A stretch of 64,000 bases of DNA from Escherichia coli (GTDB lineage: Bacteria; Pseudomonadota; Gammaproteobacteria; Enterobacterales; Enterobacteriaceae): NCBI RefSeq assembly GCF_013122565.1, contig NZ_CP053258.1. The stretch is one strand, 5' to 3'. The notes beneath the pieces were generated by a model. That model ran no database searches and was not told the DNA's origin. It was given only the letters and a program-made list of their open reading frames with translations. A program made the translations under genes and the position numbers. This document shows positions 2 through 64,000 of this stretch, one piece after another (within the stretch, counting starts at the first letter, position 1; every line of letters begins with the position of its first letter).

Positions 2-202
2 ATCATTGCCAGCGGTGAAAATTCAACGGTAGTGAGCACGGGCGTGGTCGACTCAATTATTCTCGGGCCAGGAGGAAGCGCCGCACTGGCATATCATGAC
101 GGCGAAAGAGTTCGTTTCGCCGTCGCCATTGAAGGTGAAAACAATATTCGAGCCGGAGTCCGCTATCGTCTTAATGAACAGCATCAGTTTGTTGAGTGCT
201 GA
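2..202 (+). CDS. ydhT: 3' terminal fragment (66 codons) of a gene truncated by the window start; probably ydhT by gene order
   Basis: Frame +2 is open from position 2 to TGA at 200-202 (translation IIASGENSTVVSTGVV...RYRLNEQHQFVEC, no internal stops); convergent with ydhS as in E. coli gene order; identity inferred from position, not from recognised sequence. Confidence 0.5.
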   Translation: MIASGENSTVVSTGVVDSIILGPGGSAALAYHDGERVRFAVAIEGENNIRAGVRYRLNEQHQFVEC

Positions 203-213
203 TAGCTTTACCT

Positions 214-1818
214 TTAATCAAACGAAAGACGCCGACGAGCACGGGATGCAGGTTTTACGACCGCCCGAGCCATCGCCTCACCAATTTCTGCACATGCCGT
301 AAGTCCCTGAACGAAAGGCTGGTCGTGCATTAACCAGGGCAACGCGCCGAACGCTACGCGCCCACGAATATCTTCGGGTTGCTGTAACGTATAATCTTCA
401 CCAACATCAGGGATTTCATCCCCTGTTTTCTGTAATTGTTCGCGTAGTCCAGGGAAAGGAATATCTTTCACTTTAAGCGGACGCTGCCCGCGGGCATCAA
501 TAAAAACGTCAAACGAGTAGCTGTTGTCTTCCGTTTTCAGGACGGTGCGCGACTCGTTAATTTCCATTTTGTAGTCTTCACCGAGAGCGAGAATATGAAT
601 GATTCCCGCTTCACGTAAGGCCAGCAGCCGACGAATAGACTCTGAAGGGATTGCGGCATAATTATCTATGAAAACCCGGGCAAGGCCTTTACTGAACCGT
701 TTATGGTCGTGTTCATTCAGATGTGGAACAATTTCCTGTACTGCTTCATGCAGGCGCAGAATGACATAACGCCAGGGAACAGTATGTTTTTCTCGTTTAT
801 TGCGTTCGACTTCCTGGAGATTTTTTTCTGCCCAGTCAAATGGGTCGCGTTGTTTGCGCTCGGCAAACCAGGCTTGAGCAAAGGAATCGACATTCAGGCT
901 CTCTAAGGCTATGCGTTGACTCCAGTCTGGATCAGCAAACTTGATTTCCTCTACTATCAATCTAAATACCCGATCCAAAAGGCCCTCTTCGCCTTTTTGA
1001 ATTTCAGCATTTAATGCCTGATCGGTGACGATGTGTAAGGGCTCGTAGGGAATAGGGCAATAGAAATCGGCTTCGGGTAAAATACCCGTGCGCGACATCA
1101 ACGTGATATTTAGCTTTTCACTTGCGTTATCGCGGTGAAAAACGACGTGTTGTTTATCATCTTCAATGAACGAACCATGCTGAATAGCCACTGCCATTGC
1201 CGCATCCAGTCCGCTCAAGGATGTTCCCATAATACCCACGTTACACGCATCGACCTTTGCTTCCATCAGGCCTGACCACGGGCTGGGAAAATACGTTCGG
1301 GTTGCTTCTTCTTCATCAGGCCAGACGTGACCCGTGGCAATCACCGCTAAATCAAACGTCTCGCTGGGTAAATCCTGATTTGTAGCGAGCATGACGCCAG
1401 CATTTGTAATTTGAAGATCGGTAACCTGGCATGATTCATAAACAGCCACTGCAAATTTTTGCTTTCGTGCCTGGTCTACTAATCTTAAAAATTGATCGCG
1501 GAAATATTCGCCCAGCAGAATTCGCGGTAAAAACTGACGATCGTGCAAGGTTTCTTTTTTAACGCCATAACGCTGGAGATGGCTGGCTTCTTGCTTTTGT
1601 AGCCATTCGAGATACGTACAATAAATCGGCGGTATTTCAATACTGGCAATATTTGCCAGCATCATTTTTGAGTTTTCCTCATCACTGTATGGCATCCCGA
1701 CACCGGCCTCGTCAGCCTGCTCGAAGATAGAAATAGAAAGTGGAGTTTGTTGCTGTAGAAGCGAGAATAAGGTGTAGATCCCCGTAGGCCCGGCACCCAC
1801 AATAGCAATTTTTTTCAT
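214..1818 (-). CDS. ydhS: FAD/NAD(P)-binding protein YdhS
   Basis: ORF track 534 aa; N-terminal MKKIAIVGAGPTG dinucleotide-binding motif; length and sequence match my memory of E. coli YdhS. Confidence 0.9.
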   Translation of the reverse strand: MKKIAIVGAGPTGIYTLFSLLQQQTPLSISIFEQADEAGVGMPYSDEENSKMMLANIASIEIPPIYCTYLEWLQKQEASHLQRYGVKKETLHDRQFLPRILLGEYFRDQFLRLVDQARKQKFAVAVYESCQVTDLQITNAGVMLATNQDLPSETFDLAVIATGHVWPDEEEATRTYFPSPWSGLMEAKVDACNVGIMGTSLSGLDAAMAVAIQHGSFIEDDKQHVVFHRDNASEKLNITLMSRTGILPEADFYCPIPYEPLHIVTDQALNAEIQKGEEGLLDRVFRLIVEEIKFADPDWSQRIALESLNVDSFAQAWFAERKQRDPFDWAEKNLQEVERNKREKHTVPWRYVILRLHEAVQEIVPHLNEHDHKRFSKGLARVFIDNYAAIPSESIRRLLALREAGIIHILALGEDYKMEINESRTVLKTEDNSYSFDVFIDARGQRPLKVKDIPFPGLREQLQKTGDEIPDVGEDYTLQQPEDIRGRVAFGALPWLMHDQPFVQGLTACAEIGEAMARAVVKPASRARRRLSFD

Positions 1819-9150: not shown

Positions 9151-10083
9151 ATGTGGTCAGAATATTCTCTCGAAGTTGTTGATGCGGTAGCGCGTAATGG
9201 TAGTTTTAGCGCTGCAGCCCAGGAGTTGCATCGCGTTCCTTCTGCGGTCAGCTATACCGTGCGTCAGCTGGAAGAGTGGCTGGCGGTGCCGCTCTTTGAA
9301 CGACGGCACCGTGATGTGGAGCTGACCGCTGCTGGAGCGTGGTTTCTCAAAGAAGGGCGCTCTGTTGTCAAAAAAATGCAGATCACCCGCCAGCAATGTC
9401 AGCAGATAGCGAACGGCTGGCGCGGTCAGTTAGCTATCGCAGTGGATAATATTGTCAGGCCAGAACGTACACGGCAGATGATCGTTGATTTTTATCGCCA
9501 TTTTGATGATGTCGAACTTCTTGTCTTTCAGGAAGTGTTCAACGGTGTCTGGGATGCGCTTTCCGACGGGCGCGTGGAACTGGCGATTGGCGCAACACGC
9601 GCGATTCCGGTAGGCGGTCGTTATGCCTTCCGGGATATGGGGATGCTAAGCTGGAGTTGCGTTGTTGCCAGTCACCACCCGCTGGCGTTGATGGATGGTC
9701 CGTTCAGCGATGATACGTTGCGCAACTGGCCGTCGTTGGTGCGCGAAGACACCTCGCGAACGCTACCTAAACGTATTACCTGGTTGCTGGATAACCAAAA
9801 AAGAGTTGTCGTGCCTGACTGGGAATCATCGGCAACCTGTATCTCGGCAGGATTATGCATAGGGATGGTGCCAACACATTTCGCCAAACCGTGGCTTAAT
9901 GAAGGGAAGTGGGTAGCATTAGAACTGGAAAACCCCTTTCCGGATTCGGCATGTTGTCTGACATGGCAGCAAAATGATATGTCGCCTGCGTTAACCTGGT
10001 TGCTTGAGTATCTCGGCGATAGTGAGACGCTGAATAAGGAGTGGCTGCGGGAGCCGGAAGAGACTCCCGCAACGGGTGATTAA
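9151..10083 (+). CDS. punR: LysR-family transcriptional regulator PunR (formerly YdhB)
   Basis: ORF track 310 aa; N-terminal LysR HTH region; divergent from punC. Confidence 0.85.
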
Positions 10084-11105: not shown

Positions 11106-11149
11106 TCCATTTCACTCCAGACCCTAACTTCAGCTCCTGCAAAATCGCA

Positions 11150-11165
11150 AGGTAAACGTTTGCCT
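11150..11165 (-). promoter_or_regulatory. PurR box-like operator in the purR leader (autoregulation)
   Basis: Plus strand AGGTAAACGTTTGCCT, i.e. minus strand AGGCAAACGTTTACCT, matching the PurR consensus core GCAAACGTTTnC; about 45-60 nt upstream of purR start codon. Confidence 0.6.
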
Positions 11166-11403
11166 TTACACACCTTACGCACAACAAAAGTGTTGCGGTA
11201 CGCCGGAAAAACGACACGGAGCGTCAGGAAGGGGTCAATGGCCAGTACGCAAATAGTGTAAGCGTGGAATTTTGGCCGATCTTGACGAAAAGGGGAAGTG
11301 GTAAAAACACTTATCATTATAAATGACGGGAGATTTTTTCATCACAGTGTGTAAAAATGCGTAATATCACTTTTTGTGTGGTAATAAAAAAGGAGAAAAC
11401 TTG

Positions 11404-11493
11404 ATGAGCACCGACCTTAAATTTTCACTGGTAACAACGATTATCGTCCTCGGTTTGATCGTAGCCGTGGGTTTGACTGCCGCGCTGCACTGA
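11404..11493 (+). CDS. ynhF: small membrane protein YnhF (29 aa)
   Basis: ATG at 11404 preceded by AGGAG about 8 nt upstream; translation MSTDLKFSLVTTIIVLGLIVAVGLTAALH, single hydrophobic helix; matches known E. coli small protein in purR-ydhP intergenic region. Confidence 0.75.
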   Translation: MSTDLKFSLVTTIIVLGLIVAVGLTAALH

Positions 11494-11658
11494 TTTCCAC
11501 TCGAGGGAGCGCGTTCTCCCTCGCATCTCCTTCCTGTTTGTTAGCAAAATGGCAAAAGTGTTTTCTCTTTTTGTTATTTTCATTTTTTTGTGATTGCTGT
11601 CATGCTTTCGCCACTTTAATGAATATCGCGTAATGACGCGAAGAGGTGGAGATAAGGC

Positions 11659-22953: not shown

Positions 22954-23025
22954 GCGCAAGTAAAGTTGCTACTTTGGGCATTAACAGCTTCAATAATGGT
23001 AATAATCTTATCTGAGGAGGGCGAG

Positions 23026-23265
23026 GTGGCGGAGCAATTAGAGTTCTTTCCCGTCCAGAGCCCGTGCCGGGGAATTTGCCAGTCTGACGAACGCGGATTT
23101 TGTCGCGGCTGTTTTCGTAGTCGGGATGAGCGTTTTAACTGGAATAAAATGAGCGATGGCGAAAAACAAGAGGTGCTGCGCCTTTGTCGGCAACGATTAA
23201 TGCGCAAATTACGTGCAAATAAGCCAGCGTCATCAGACGAACCGGAGCAACCATCACTCTTTTGA
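23026..23265 (+). CDS. ydhL: DUF1289-family Cys-rich small protein YdhL (79 aa)
   Basis: GTG at 23026 with GAGGAGG 6 nt upstream; translation MAEQLEFFPVQSPCRGICQSDERGFCRGCFRS...; the ORF-track 136-aa version is a 5' over-extension. Confidence 0.75.
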   Translation: MAEQLEFFPVQSPCRGICQSDERGFCRGCFRSRDERFNWNKMSDGEKQEVLRLCRQRLMRKLRANKPASSDEPEQPSLF

Positions 23266-23313
23266 GCCTAATCTTGCGTATACTCCTCTCATATCTGATA
23301 AGAGGAAGCGATT

Positions 23314-24210
23314 ATGGTTCAGCGTATTACTATTGCGCCGCAAGGCCCGGAGTTTTCCCGTTTTGTGATGGGCTACTGGCGATTGATGGACTGGAACATG
23401 TCCGCCCGCCAGCTGGTCAGTTTTATTGAAGAGCATCTGGATCTCGGCGTGACCACCGTGGACCATGCTGATATTTATGGTGGCTATCAGTGCGAAGCGG
23501 CGTTTGGCGAGGCGCTGAAACTGGCACCTCACCTGCGTGAGCGGATGGAAATAGTCAGTAAATGCGGTATCGCGACGACCGCGCGTGAAGAAAACGTCAT
23601 TGGTCATTATATCACTGACCGCGATCACATCATTAAGAGCGCCGAAGAGTCGCTAATTAATCTTGCGACCGATCATCTGGATCTGCTGTTAATCCACCGC
23701 CCGGACCCGTTAATGGATGCCGATGAAGTGGCGGACGCGTTCAAACATCTGCATCAGAGCGGCAAAGTGCGTCATTTTGGCGTATCCAACTTCACGCCCG
23801 CGCAATTTGCCCTGTTGCAATCACGCCTGCCGTTTACCCTTGCCACTAATCAGGTGGAAATATCCCCGGTACATCAGCCGTTACTGCTGGATGGCACGCT
23901 CGACCAACTGCAACAACTGCGTGTTCGTCCGATGGCGTGGTCTTGCCTTGGCGGTGGTCGTCTGTTTAATGATGATTATTTCCAGCCGCTGCGTGATGAA
24001 CTGACTGTGGTGGCAGAGGAGTTAAACGCGGGCTCGATTGAACAGGTGGTTTACGCCTGGGTACTACGTTTACCGTCGCAGCCGCTGCCAATTATCGGCT
24101 CAGGTAAAATTGAGCGCGTACGGTCAGCGGTCGAAGCAGAAACACTGAAAATGACCCGTCAACAATGGTTTCGTATCCGTAAAGCGGCACTGGGTTACGA
24201 CGTACCGTAA
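23314..24210 (+). CDS. ydhF: aldo-keto reductase YdhF
   Basis: ORF track 298 aa; AKR-family sequence. Confidence 0.88.
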   Translation: MVQRITIAPQGPEFSRFVMGYWRLMDWNMSARQLVSFIEEHLDLGVTTVDHADIYGGYQCEAAFGEALKLAPHLRERMEIVSKCGIATTAREENVIGHYITDRDHIIKSAEESLINLATDHLDLLLIHRPDPLMDADEVADAFKHLHQSGKVRHFGVSNFTPAQFALLQSRLPFTLATNQVEISPVHQPLLLDGTLDQLQQLRVRPMAWSCLGGGRLFNDDYFQPLRDELTVVAEELNAGSIEQVVYAWVLRLPSQPLPIIGSGKIERVRSAVEAETLKMTRQQWFRIRKAALGYDVP

Positions 24211-24290
24211 GCACTTTTAGGAATAGCCGCCGTTCAAAAATGTGTCACTGGTTTACACTTATTCAGGAATGCACAATGAACGGAGGTCCT

Positions 24291-24812
24291 ATGAAACGTT
24301 TTAGTCTGGCCATTCTGGCGCTGGTTGTTGCGACCGGCGCACAAGCTGCCAGTGAAAAAGTCGAGATGAACCTCGTCACGTCGCAAGGGGTTGGGCAGTC
24401 AATTGGTAGCGTCACCATTACTGAAACCGATAAAGGTCTGGAGTTTTCGCCCGATCTGAAAGCATTACCCCCCGGTGAACATGGCTTCCATATTCATGCC
24501 AAAGGAAGCTGCCAGCCAGCCACCAAAGATGGCAAAGCCAGCGCCGCGGAATCCGCAGGCGGGCATCTTGATCCACAAAATACCGGTAAACATGAAGGGC
24601 CAGAAGGTGCCGGGCATTTAGGCGATCTGCCTGCACTGGTCGTCAATAATGATGGCAAAGCTACCGATGCCGTCATCGCGCCTCGTCTGAAATCACTGGA
24701 TGAAATCAAAGACAAAGCGCTGATGGTCCACGTTGGCGGGGATAACATGTCCGATCAACCTAAACCGCTGGGCGGTGGCGGTGAACGCTATGCCTGTGGT
24801 GTGATTAAGTAA
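24291..24812 (+). CDS. sodC: periplasmic Cu,Zn superoxide dismutase
   Basis: ATG at 24291 preceded by GGAGG; signal peptide MKRFSLAILALVVATGAQA; His-rich Cu/Zn-SOD motifs; 173 aa; ORF-track start at 24240 is an upstream extension. Confidence 0.9.
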   Translation: MKRFSLAILALVVATGAQAASEKVEMNLVTSQGVGQSIGSVTITETDKGLEFSPDLKALPPGEHGFHIHAKGSCQPATKDGKASAAESAGGHLDPQNTGKHEGPEGAGHLGDLPALVVNNDGKATDAVIAPRLKSLDEIKDKALMVHVGGDNMSDQPKPLGGGGERYACGVIK

Positions 24813-26825
24813 TTAAGAGGCCAGCGTACCTTGCGGCGGTGCTTGCTCAAGTTGCGAAAGCGAGCAGTACAGCCGCCAGACAATTGCCGCCAGCTCACGG
24901 GCGGCAGGTTGATGATGACGGGCAAGGCTGTCGCAAATCCGCTGTAATTCTTCAAGTGTGGCCGCCAGTGATTTTTGCTGAACGCCACGCTCACTCATCA
25001 CTCCCCGCAACAGTGAAATACAGTTATCCCGTACTCGCGATAACGGATCGGAACGCGATTCCCAGTCGCGTAATTGCCAGACAACATGAGAACAGTTCAG
25101 CAGCACTACACCCCAGCGTAATAACCAACGGCGAGCCAGCGCATCCTGGCTGTTACTCAACTGACTGACGTGATGATAAGTGAGCGATTCAAATTCGCTT
25201 TCACTCAGTGTTGGATGGCGGCTTAGTTGATCGACAAAATCCCGGCGCAGCGCGCGAATATGGCGGCGGCTTTTGCGAGCATCCGATCCTGGACGCAGAA
25301 TGGCGAACGCTAACCACGCCAACGCGACGCCAACGATTTTTGCCAGATTATCGTTAAGAAAATCAGCAAAATCATACACCGGGGGATTAGTGACAGCGAT
25401 AAAAGAACCCATAAAAACAATCAGTTGCCCCCACAATGCGGCAAATTTGGGCATCTGCAATTTAAGAAGCTGCATTGTCGCCAGCAGTGGAAAGAGAAAC
25501 AGTAAAAATTGCCACAGATCGCTAATCTGGACCATCAGACCAAATTTGACCACAAAGCTGAATAGCGAAAGTAACACCAGCGTGCGCATCAGCAGTGACA
25601 ACGACTTAAACGGTGCTGCGACGGCGGAGTAGAGTACGCAGCTAATTGCTGCCAGCGTTAATGCATTGGCACCGGCATCCCATTGCGAAGCAACACTCCA
25701 TGCGCCAATCATCATCAACGTACAAAATGTACGCAGCCCGCTCCACATAGCTTCGGCGTTATCGGTATGACGAGCCAGGCCGGATATCCGTGGGAGTCTG
25801 GTATGATCATCTACACCGCTTTGCAGACGATGTAATTCCTGACTACTTTGCAGATAAAGGTGGCAAAAATAACGTAGTCGCTGCCAGAAGGCGACGTGCC
25901 GGTAGTCGCCGACGTTGGTCGGGCGTAGCGGGGCGATAATACGTGCGACGGTGTAAACATCTGTTTGCGAACTGGCGAGCGCCGTCAGCAACTGTTCGAG
26001 AATTTCTCGTGTGGCACCTGGCGGTGAGGGCCAGTTGAGCAACATACGTCGCAGGCTGGAGATGACACTGGTCATACGTAATTGCTGGTGGAGCAGCGCA
26101 TTAAGGCGCGCGTTTTGCTGGCGAAAACGATAGTGGCTCCAGAAAGCCTGGATACGCAGCAAATTCATGGTCAGTATCTGCCCAATCACCCCTTCATGTG
26201 CTGCACGAATGGCATCGGTTGTTTCAGGCTGCCAGAGTAAACTGGCATGTTCCAGTAATCGGGCGTGCATGTTTTTCAATGCGGTTAAAAGGGCTGTAGC
26301 ATCGGAACTGCTAGGCAGGATCATCATCATCATGCCGCCGCACAAAATACCGACAATCACCTCGCAAACGCGCGCCTGAGCGATATCCCACAGCTGGCTG
26401 GCCTCAGTAATATTAACCATCGGAAAGGCGATGATGGCAGCCGTGTAGCCCGCCAGTTGAAATGCATACGCGACGTTATTCGTGAAGTGCGCACAGGCCC
26501 AGGTACAAAAGCCAAGCCACGCCGACATGCTCAATAGAAAAAACCACGGCTCATTGAGCGTATGCCCGGCAAGAAGCAGTGCCGCAATGGCTCCCAGTAA
26601 ACTGCCAGCGATGCGTCCGAGGCTTTTGCTGATGACACCGCCAACGGTGGGAAAGCTAACCACTGCAGCCGAGGTCATCGCCCAATAGGGTTCATCCAGA
26701 TTCAAATAATAGGCAACCGTCAGCGCCAGACACATGGCAATGGTATTGCGTAACGCATAACGCCATTGCGCCAGCGTGGCCCTGAACCAGGGCAAATTGC
26801 GCAAGGACCATGACGATGCGTTCAT
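24813..26825 (-). CDS. ydhK: FUSC-family (fusaric-acid-resistance-like) inner membrane efflux protein YdhK
   Basis: ORF track 670 aa; two hydrophobic blocks separated by a soluble domain, AaeB-like; overlaps ydhJ stop by 1 nt. Confidence 0.88.
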
Positions 26826-27682
26826 TATTGACCTACGGCAATGCTACAGGTGGTGCCCGACACCAGCGTGACATCGCCTGGAACTTTATCCAGCGCAAAG
26901 CGGACGGGAACGCGTTGGGCGAGACGAACCCAGGGGACGTTAGGTTTCACATCCGGAATAAGGCTTGAGTCACTTTCAACGCTCTGATCATAAATCGCCC
27001 GACCGATACTGGAAACGTGACCCTGTAACGTTTTGTTATCACTATAGAGGGTAATTTGTGCTGGTGCACCTTCGCGGATATGGCGCAACTTGGTTTCTTC
27101 AAAATAACCAATGACGTAAAACGAGTGGCTGTCGACAAGGGCAAACAGCGGTTTCCCGGTATCAGCGTAATCGCCGATGCGGGTAGTAAGGTTAGTCACC
27201 CATCCACTCACCGGGGCGCGAATTTCCGTTTGCGCCAGTTGCCATTGTGCCTGTTTCAGCGTCGCCTGTGCGGCATCAACACTGGCCTGCATCGCTTTAA
27301 CATTGAGGTTAGCGGTATCGAGTTCTTCGGCAGAAATAAAATTTTGTGAGAGATGACGACGACGATTCGCTTCGTTATTGGCTTTTGCGAGGTCAGATTG
27401 CGCTTTCGCCAGCTGAGCCTGTGCGTTCAGCTCGGCGATCTGAAAGGGCGTTTTATCGATCGTGAGCAGAAGATCCCCCGCGTTAACCAGCTGGTTGTCT
27501 TTTATATTCAGCTCAACAATACGTCCCGACACCTGTGGGGTGATAGAAACCTGTTCTGCGCGTATTTTCCCGTCGCGTGTCCACGGAGATTGCATGTAAT
27601 AATTCCACAGCCACCATCCGGCAAGAACTGCAACTACCGCTACAATGATTGTTGAGAAATACTTAATTGTTTTAATTGACAT
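26825..27682 (-). CDS. ydhJ: HlyD-family membrane fusion protein YdhJ
   Basis: ATG (plus-strand CAT at 27680-27682) gives 285 aa [17 protein letters not shown]...; the ORF-track TTG start at 27724 is an extension; coiled-coil MFP sequence. Confidence 0.85.
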
Positions 27683-27684
27683 AG

Positions 27685-27921
27685 TTACCACGCAATCAGT
27701 ATTGCCATAGCAAGGCAAACGCAAATCGCAAACAGCGATAAATCCATTAACAAGGGATGCCAGATGTCACCGGCGTAGATCCAGCCACGAAGCAGGCGGT
27801 GTACGACAAGCCAGATGACGAATCCAAACGCGAAGGCTTTGAAAAACGGAGGAAAGTAGACGGACGCACCGAACACCAGATCTTGTAAGGGCAATCCTGT
27901 TGCATTGAGCATAAACTTCAC
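27685..27921 (-). CDS. ydhI: DUF1656 small inner membrane protein YdhI
   Basis: ORF track 78 aa; two hydrophobic helices; stop 2 nt upstream of ydhJ start (AaeX-like arrangement). Confidence 0.8.
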
Positions 27922-28093
27922 AAAGTAGATTCCTTTACGACCGAATATATTGCGTTAGATTAATAAATATTCTTTAAGTGCGAAAAATTTACGCGCAATT
28001 TCTGAAAAATATGTCTGACGGTAACCAAATGCAGCAATACATTTGTTTTAGCAATACAATTGCTGCACACTATTCTAAAAGCCGCATAATATC

Positions 28094-62267: not shown

Positions 62268-64000
<1,733 letters not shown>

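Follow-up and report, generated by a model that had tools for sequence, protein, structure and literature searches.

The convergent Escherichia coli genes sodC and ydhK meet stop codon to stop codon with no base between them. The junction is real, ordinary and widespread, it has already been catalogued and carries its zero spacer in the reference annotation, and it presents nothing new. Our reading, to which we assign a probability of about 0.75, is that this is an ordinary tail-to-tail junction whose spacer has collapsed, where the transcripts from each side run into the partner gene and come to Rho-dependent ends there.

The sodC/ydhK junction

The window (the whole stretch of DNA that was analysed, 64,000 nucleotides) is the reverse complement of K-12 approximately 1.685-1.749 Mb, and positions are given in window numbering unless stated as K-12 coordinates. 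The sodC coding sequence occupies 24291..24812 on the + strand and encodes the 173 aa periplasmic Cu,Zn superoxide dismutase SodC, which in the ORF translation terminates in GGGGERYACGVIK before the stop TAA at 24810-24812. On the - strand, ydhK occupies 24813..26825 and encodes the 670 aa FUSC-family transporter YdhK, with the C-terminus APPQGTLAS followed by a TAA stop read as the complement of 24813-24815; it is the final gene of the ydhIJK efflux operon. For both genes, ORF translation agrees with the RefSeq annotation of the matching K-12 and F9792 loci. The sequence at 24800-24819 is tgtgattaag TAA TTA agag, continuing as aga ggc through 24821, such that the back-to-back stops form a 6-nt palindrome (TAA/TTA, 24810..24815) with 0 intergenic bases.

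Both stop positions had been proposed in a sequence-only reading of this DNA, which named an incorrect stop assignment as the finding that would overturn it. Wrong stop codons were excluded here, as both ORFs give full-length conserved proteins that match the RefSeq coordinates. In the RefSeq annotation of K-12 MG1655, ydhK (1722121..1724133, +) and sodC (1724134..1724655, -) abut in the same way and the junction sequence is likewise TAATTA; identity between the window and K-12 is 98.7% across the 5 kb around the junction (23001-28000). The RefSeq layout is also the same in F9792, the closest strain at 99.3% identity. The source of the window is not K-12; strains of the O169:H41 type, F9792 among them, match it best (99.3%). 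Of 5426 complete E. coli genomes, all but one (5425) gave a single-piece match to at least 80% of a 120-nt query spanning the junction. In the GTDB representative of E. coli the junction reads TAACTA rather than TAATTA, the ydhK stop there being TAG. The two genes share no coding nucleotide: the gap is exactly 0 here, as it is in K-12, Citrobacter and Superficieibacter.

In our reading, the locus comprises two real, conserved genes whose intergenic spacer has shrunk to zero. Since there is no spacer, neither transcription unit has a terminator of its own between the genes, and the earlier statement that the pair lacks intergenic DNA, and hence an intergenic terminator, is borne out both in the window and in K-12. 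The same reading had pointed to a similar arrangement at ydhT/ydhS, with stops 11 bp apart at 200-216. This is also correct: the ydhT stop TGA lies at 200-202 (+) and the ydhS stop, the complement of TTA, at 214-216 (-), leaving an 11-nt spacer; the C-terminal peptides are identical to those of K-12 YdhT and YdhS, whose stops are annotated in K-12 at 1748735/1748747.

Frequency and conservation of tight convergent junctions

The spacing of convergent genes was sampled in the K-12 annotation over the 64 kb equivalent to the window and five 50-kb samples, which together contained 41 convergent CDS pairs. Ordered by size, the spacers were -35, -4 (four pairs), 0 (two pairs), 3, 4, 6 and 11 nt, and all others fell between 24 and 714 nt; the median was 42. 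The spacer was absent or replaced by overlap in 7 of the 41 pairs (17%) and was no longer than 11 nt in 11 of them (27%). Two pairs in the window are tighter than sodC/ydhK, purR/punR with a 4-nt overlap (TTAA at 10080-10083) and tus/fumC, also with a 4-nt overlap (TTAA at 63668-63671). Outside the window, rbsR/hsrA overlap by 35 nt in K-12, and ycaM/ycaN (K-12 948659/948660) form a second convergent pair with a spacer of exactly zero. The zero spacer of sodC/ydhK is not unusual, and because about one sixth of the sampled pairs have abutting or overlapping stops, such stops in E. coli should not be flagged as anomalous.

To follow the junction across species, we ran a degenerate pattern matching the end of SodC against a single genome of each species and obtained 120 loci. 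A ydhK homologue was found convergent with and downstream of sodC at 90 of these, and in 76 of the 90 Enterobacterales species with the tail-to-tail pair the gap lay between -22 and +15 nt. The 22-nt overlap was found in 19 species (Enterobacter, Lelliottia, Leclercia, Pseudenterobacter), a gap of -14 nt in one species, -11 nt in six and -8 nt in 20 (Klebsiella, Raoultella, Kosakonia, Pluralibacter, Siccibacter, Franconibacter, Phytobacter). A gap of 0 was shared by 16 species (Escherichia, Citrobacter, Superficieibacter and Serratia marcescens), while eight species had +1 to +2 nt (Cedecea, Buttiauxella) and six had +6 to +15 nt (other Serratia, Pseudescherichia). The tight junction is old. 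The C-terminal residues of YdhK vary from genus to genus and the tail is unconserved; in Enterobacter the final seven ydhK codons (DQITPQA and stop) are the antisense reading of the conserved sodC end RYACGVI and its stop. The drifting offset together with the unconserved tail fits neutral compaction, with the ydhK frame running on to the first stop met.

Larger gaps were seen at the remaining 14 of 90 loci and were of two kinds. In several Pantoea loci a lipoprotein-like ORF sits between sodC and ydhK, and the apparent gaps of 400-600 nt were rejected as true spacers, being filled by this ORF. The inserted ORF is approximately 140-170 aa long, lies on the sodC strand and begins with a lipoprotein-like signal (MKFKGALLLCLLLVGCD...); the five loci with it belong to Pantoea and to a strain labelled 'Enterobacter cancerogenus' M004. 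Real spacers of 47-163 nt were present in Pantoea conspicua, Edaphovirga cremea and Winslowiella iniecta, and these carry a classical GC hairpin followed by a T run. A canonical terminator is present where the spacer gives it room and absent in Enterobacteriaceae.

With a zero spacer, any 3' UTR of sodC or ydhK must overlap the partner gene, and the two genes, judged by ORFs and annotation, are neighbours on opposite strands and tail to tail, the orientation of a convergent excludon. ExcludonFinder (NAR 2025, PMC12288877) lists 165 convergent pairs whose transcription overlaps in half or more of 58 MG1655 transcriptomes, and ydhK-sodC, ydhS-ydhT, tus-fumC and purR-punR are all included. This entry in the published E. 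coli excludome lends some support to a functional convergent excludon, in which selection would keep the spacer at zero such that expression of sodC and of ydhIJK is mutually exclusive, either through polymerase collisions or through RNase III cleavage of the RNA duplex. The persistence of the tail-to-tail pairing and the tight junction over many genera points the same way, as does the fact that the genes answer to different regulators. On this account sodC would be transcribed with sigma-S in stationary phase or oxidative stress and ydhIJK would be SlyA-repressed and sigma-E-responsive. The ydhIJK genes are a SlyA-repressed efflux operon that confers fusaric acid resistance in Salmonella (PMC6401476), and ydhK is reported to belong to the sigma-E regulon and sodC to that of sigma-S (PMC2685091). 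Against selection on the junction, the free drift of the offset between genera and the unconserved YdhK tail favour neutral compaction over a tuned element, Pantoea carries its extra gene between sodC and ydhK with neither gene lost, and the same layout occurs in some 17% of sampled convergent pairs. Both genes are also weakly expressed in standard conditions, so that collisions and duplexes would be rare. We consider a functional excludon unlikely.

We also judge improbable the proposal that the long sodC 3' UTR, perfectly antisense to the final ~200 nt of ydhK, works as a cis-antisense regulator that has been conserved. If this were true, sigma-S-induced sodC would shut down the YdhIJK pump, and the reverse, and coupling by convergent transcription and RNA duplex formation would explain why the junction has been held within ~20 nt across Enterobacterales.

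Transcript ends on the two strands

Under the collapsed-spacer reading, RNA polymerase would pass each stop codon and enter the antisense strand of the partner gene. Untranslated sodC RNA would then present three stable hairpins that lack a U tract, followed by a C-rich, G-poor stretch. The first stem-loop (24830..24880, +; dG -24.1 kcal/mol, z -2.8 vs shuffles) is antisense to ydhK codons ~649-665 and has no U tract, and a similar hairpin was observed in Citrobacter and Enterobacter sequences. The second (24880..24912, +; GCCGCC...GGCGGC, dG -16.1 kcal/mol, z -2.8) was found in most of the genera examined and is followed by AGGUUGAUGAUG, again with no U tract. The third (24955..24995, +; dG -16.4 kcal/mol, z -3.1) directly precedes the C-rich tract. 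The sequences immediately 3' of the three hairpins are AGACAAUU, AGGUUGAUG and CACUCAUC, none of which is a U tract. The sodC strand has the arrangement expected of a Rho terminator, in which a stable stem-loop that lacks a U tract sits shortly before a candidate rut site.

That candidate, the C-rich and G-poor tract at 24953..25052 in sodC-sense RNA (+), is the strongest C>G stretch in the first 800 nt downstream of sodC. The C/G ratio is 1.8-2.3 across 24953-25032, a rut-like composition that begins 141 nt past the sodC stop, and it peaks at 2.33 in 24973-25032 compared with a median of 0.97 for antisense-ydhK sequence. A C>G bubble at +161..+220 nt and +261..+320 nt recurs in 82% of the 49 loci of other genera that were compared, a conservation which could reflect conserved YdhK codons and not selection for a rut site.

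Published data place a Rho termination region in this tract. Supplementary file 2 of Adams 2021 (eLife, PMC7815308) includes such a region, assigned to the class 'antisense ydhK', at K-12 1723937 (-). This coordinate corresponds to window position 25009 (61/61 nt identical), which falls within the C-rich tract and lies 197 nt beyond the sodC stop. Upstream/downstream reads at this position were 74/14 without bicyclomycin and 29/28 with the drug (Rho score 5.10, p 2.8e-5; PMC7815308), a rise of approximately 5-fold in sodC-strand readthrough that comes from one dataset with low read counts, coarse 800-nt windows and exponential-phase LB, a condition in which the sigma-S-dependent sodC is weakly expressed. 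The same study reports 'antisense' Rho regions at the convergent tus, slyA, lhr and ydhQ of the window, and its supplements contain no curated Term-seq 3' end near the junction (K-12 17237xx-17242xx). A search for termination signals within the partner genes had been suggested in the sequence-only reading, and the region at 25009, inside ydhK, is such a signal for the sodC strand.

For Rho-dependent transcripts, Dar and Sorek (2018, PMC6061677) describe 3' ends that carry a protective stem-loop and have the rut site directly after it. In our reading, Rho would load at the C-rich tract and sodC transcription would stop ~200 nt inside ydhK. Exonucleases would then probably shorten the RNA as far as one of the hairpins, so that a 3' UTR of some 65-185 nt would remain, all of it antisense to the ydhK 3' end.

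The ydhIJK transcript may end likewise inside sodC. The first 80 nt of ydhK-sense RNA past the stop (24733..24812, -) are antisense to the 3' end of sodC and moderately C-rich, with a C/G ratio of 1.5-1.67, which marks them by composition as a candidate site of Rho loading. They are followed, ~75-170 nt from the junction, by a stable hairpin that has no U tract. The sole ydhK-strand entry in Adams 2021 (PMC7815308) is a Rho region within the ydhK ORF at K-12 1723528 (+), approximately window 25418 and ~605 nt before the ydhK stop, where bicyclomycin raised reads about 7-fold (54 to 382). This increase suggests that Rho limits ydhIJK expression. Supplementary file 2 of that study has no entry on the ydhK strand past the ydhK stop, and since one position is reported per 800 nt, this rule could mask a ydhK-strand site in sodC (PMC7815308). 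Rho-dependent termination inside the partner gene is the most likely mechanism, with published support for the sodC strand and by inference for the ydhK strand. The overlap between the two transcripts would then be a side effect of compaction, and each may interfere mildly with the other.

Overlapping bidirectional terminators between convergent genes were reportedly described by Ju et al. in 2019. In a collision model put forward for convergent pairs, a class termed Rho-independent (Wang et al. 2022, bioRxiv 10.1101/2022.10.23.513370), a hairpin near the junction would pause both polymerases, and head-on and trailing collisions would release them without Rho. The model was made for just such pairs as sodC/ydhK, and stable hairpins without U tracts do lie 20-100 nt from the junction in the sodC sense and ~75-170 nt from it in the ydhK sense. 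These hairpins are, however, inside the coding sequences and not common to both transcripts at a shared intergenic site. Frequent transcription from both sides would also be needed, yet ydhIJK is SlyA-repressed, and the ~5-fold rise in sodC-strand readthrough with bicyclomycin is at odds with a Rho-independent class. We regard collision-driven termination as improbable.

A consensus scan of both strands found no hairpin with a T run within ~400 nt downstream of either the sodC or the ydhK stop, and neither stop is followed by a GC-rich hairpin directly before a U tract. The 5.5-kb region held 6 terminator-like matches compared with 6.8 in shuffles, i.e. no excess. As the consensus scan and the RNA folds were both negative, an intrinsic terminator hidden within the partner genes was rejected. 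Intrinsic terminators of a weak or non-canonical kind, embedded in the partner genes, are very improbable. In their favour are the TransTermHP-predicted overlapping terminators in 146 of the 165 convergent excludons (pairs unspecified; PMC12288877), a partly U-containing stretch after the second stem-loop (24880-24912) and a weak terminator-like site on the - strand (24375..24362). Against them, the scan is empty within ~400 nt of either stop and its match total is at shuffle expectation, a U tract follows none of the three hairpins, and the - strand site, whose stem is 5 bp long, is found 440 nt downstream of the ydhK stop.

No Rfam family, and so no known structured RNA or sRNA, was matched at the junction (24200-25500, E <= 1). 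Elsewhere in the window, gathering-level Rfam matches were obtained for the sRNA STnc550 (11106-11496, +; 396 bits), for the 'HPnc0260' antisense family (2233-2395, +) opposite the tRNA-Val pair valV/valW, and for the valV/valW tRNA genes themselves (2360-2514, -).

Significance and comparison with known systems

On its own the junction matters little. It does illustrate neatly how compact bacterial genomes do without intergenic terminators, with a 3' UTR and a Rho-dependent stop signal encoded in the antisense strand of the adjoining gene. The junction could also be a simple system in which to ask whether transcripts that are forced to overlap affect regulation.

Among the closest known systems are the published convergent excludons (PMC12288877), with convergent genes, short or absent spacers and overlapping transcripts, and ydhK-sodC is itself one of the catalogued pairs. 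The paper does no more than catalogue the pair, and the evidence presented here favours a passive by-product. With tail-to-tail overlapping genes such as purR/punR and tus/fumC, each sharing a 4-nt TTAA, sodC/ydhK has the process of compaction in common. The sodC and ydhK ORFs truly overlap in several other genera, for example by 22 nt in Enterobacter and by 8 nt in Klebsiella, while in Escherichia and Citrobacter the two genes merely abut. The overlapping bidirectional terminators of Ju et al. (2019) and the bioRxiv model resemble the locus in the convergent pair, the hairpins without U tracts and the lack of a canonical terminator. They differ in being Rho-independent and placed between genes; sodC/ydhK has no intergenic DNA, and its sodC strand is bicyclomycin-sensitive. 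On the sodC strand the likeness to Rho-dependent 3' ends (PMC6061677, PMC7815308) extends to the hairpins followed by a C-rich, G-poor tract and to a bicyclomycin-sensitive region published at the mapped coordinate. Unlike in the usual Rho-dependent 3' end, the sodC 3' UTR and terminator would lie wholly inside, and antisense to, the ydhK coding sequence, and because of this position the sodC termination signals must coexist with YdhK codons.
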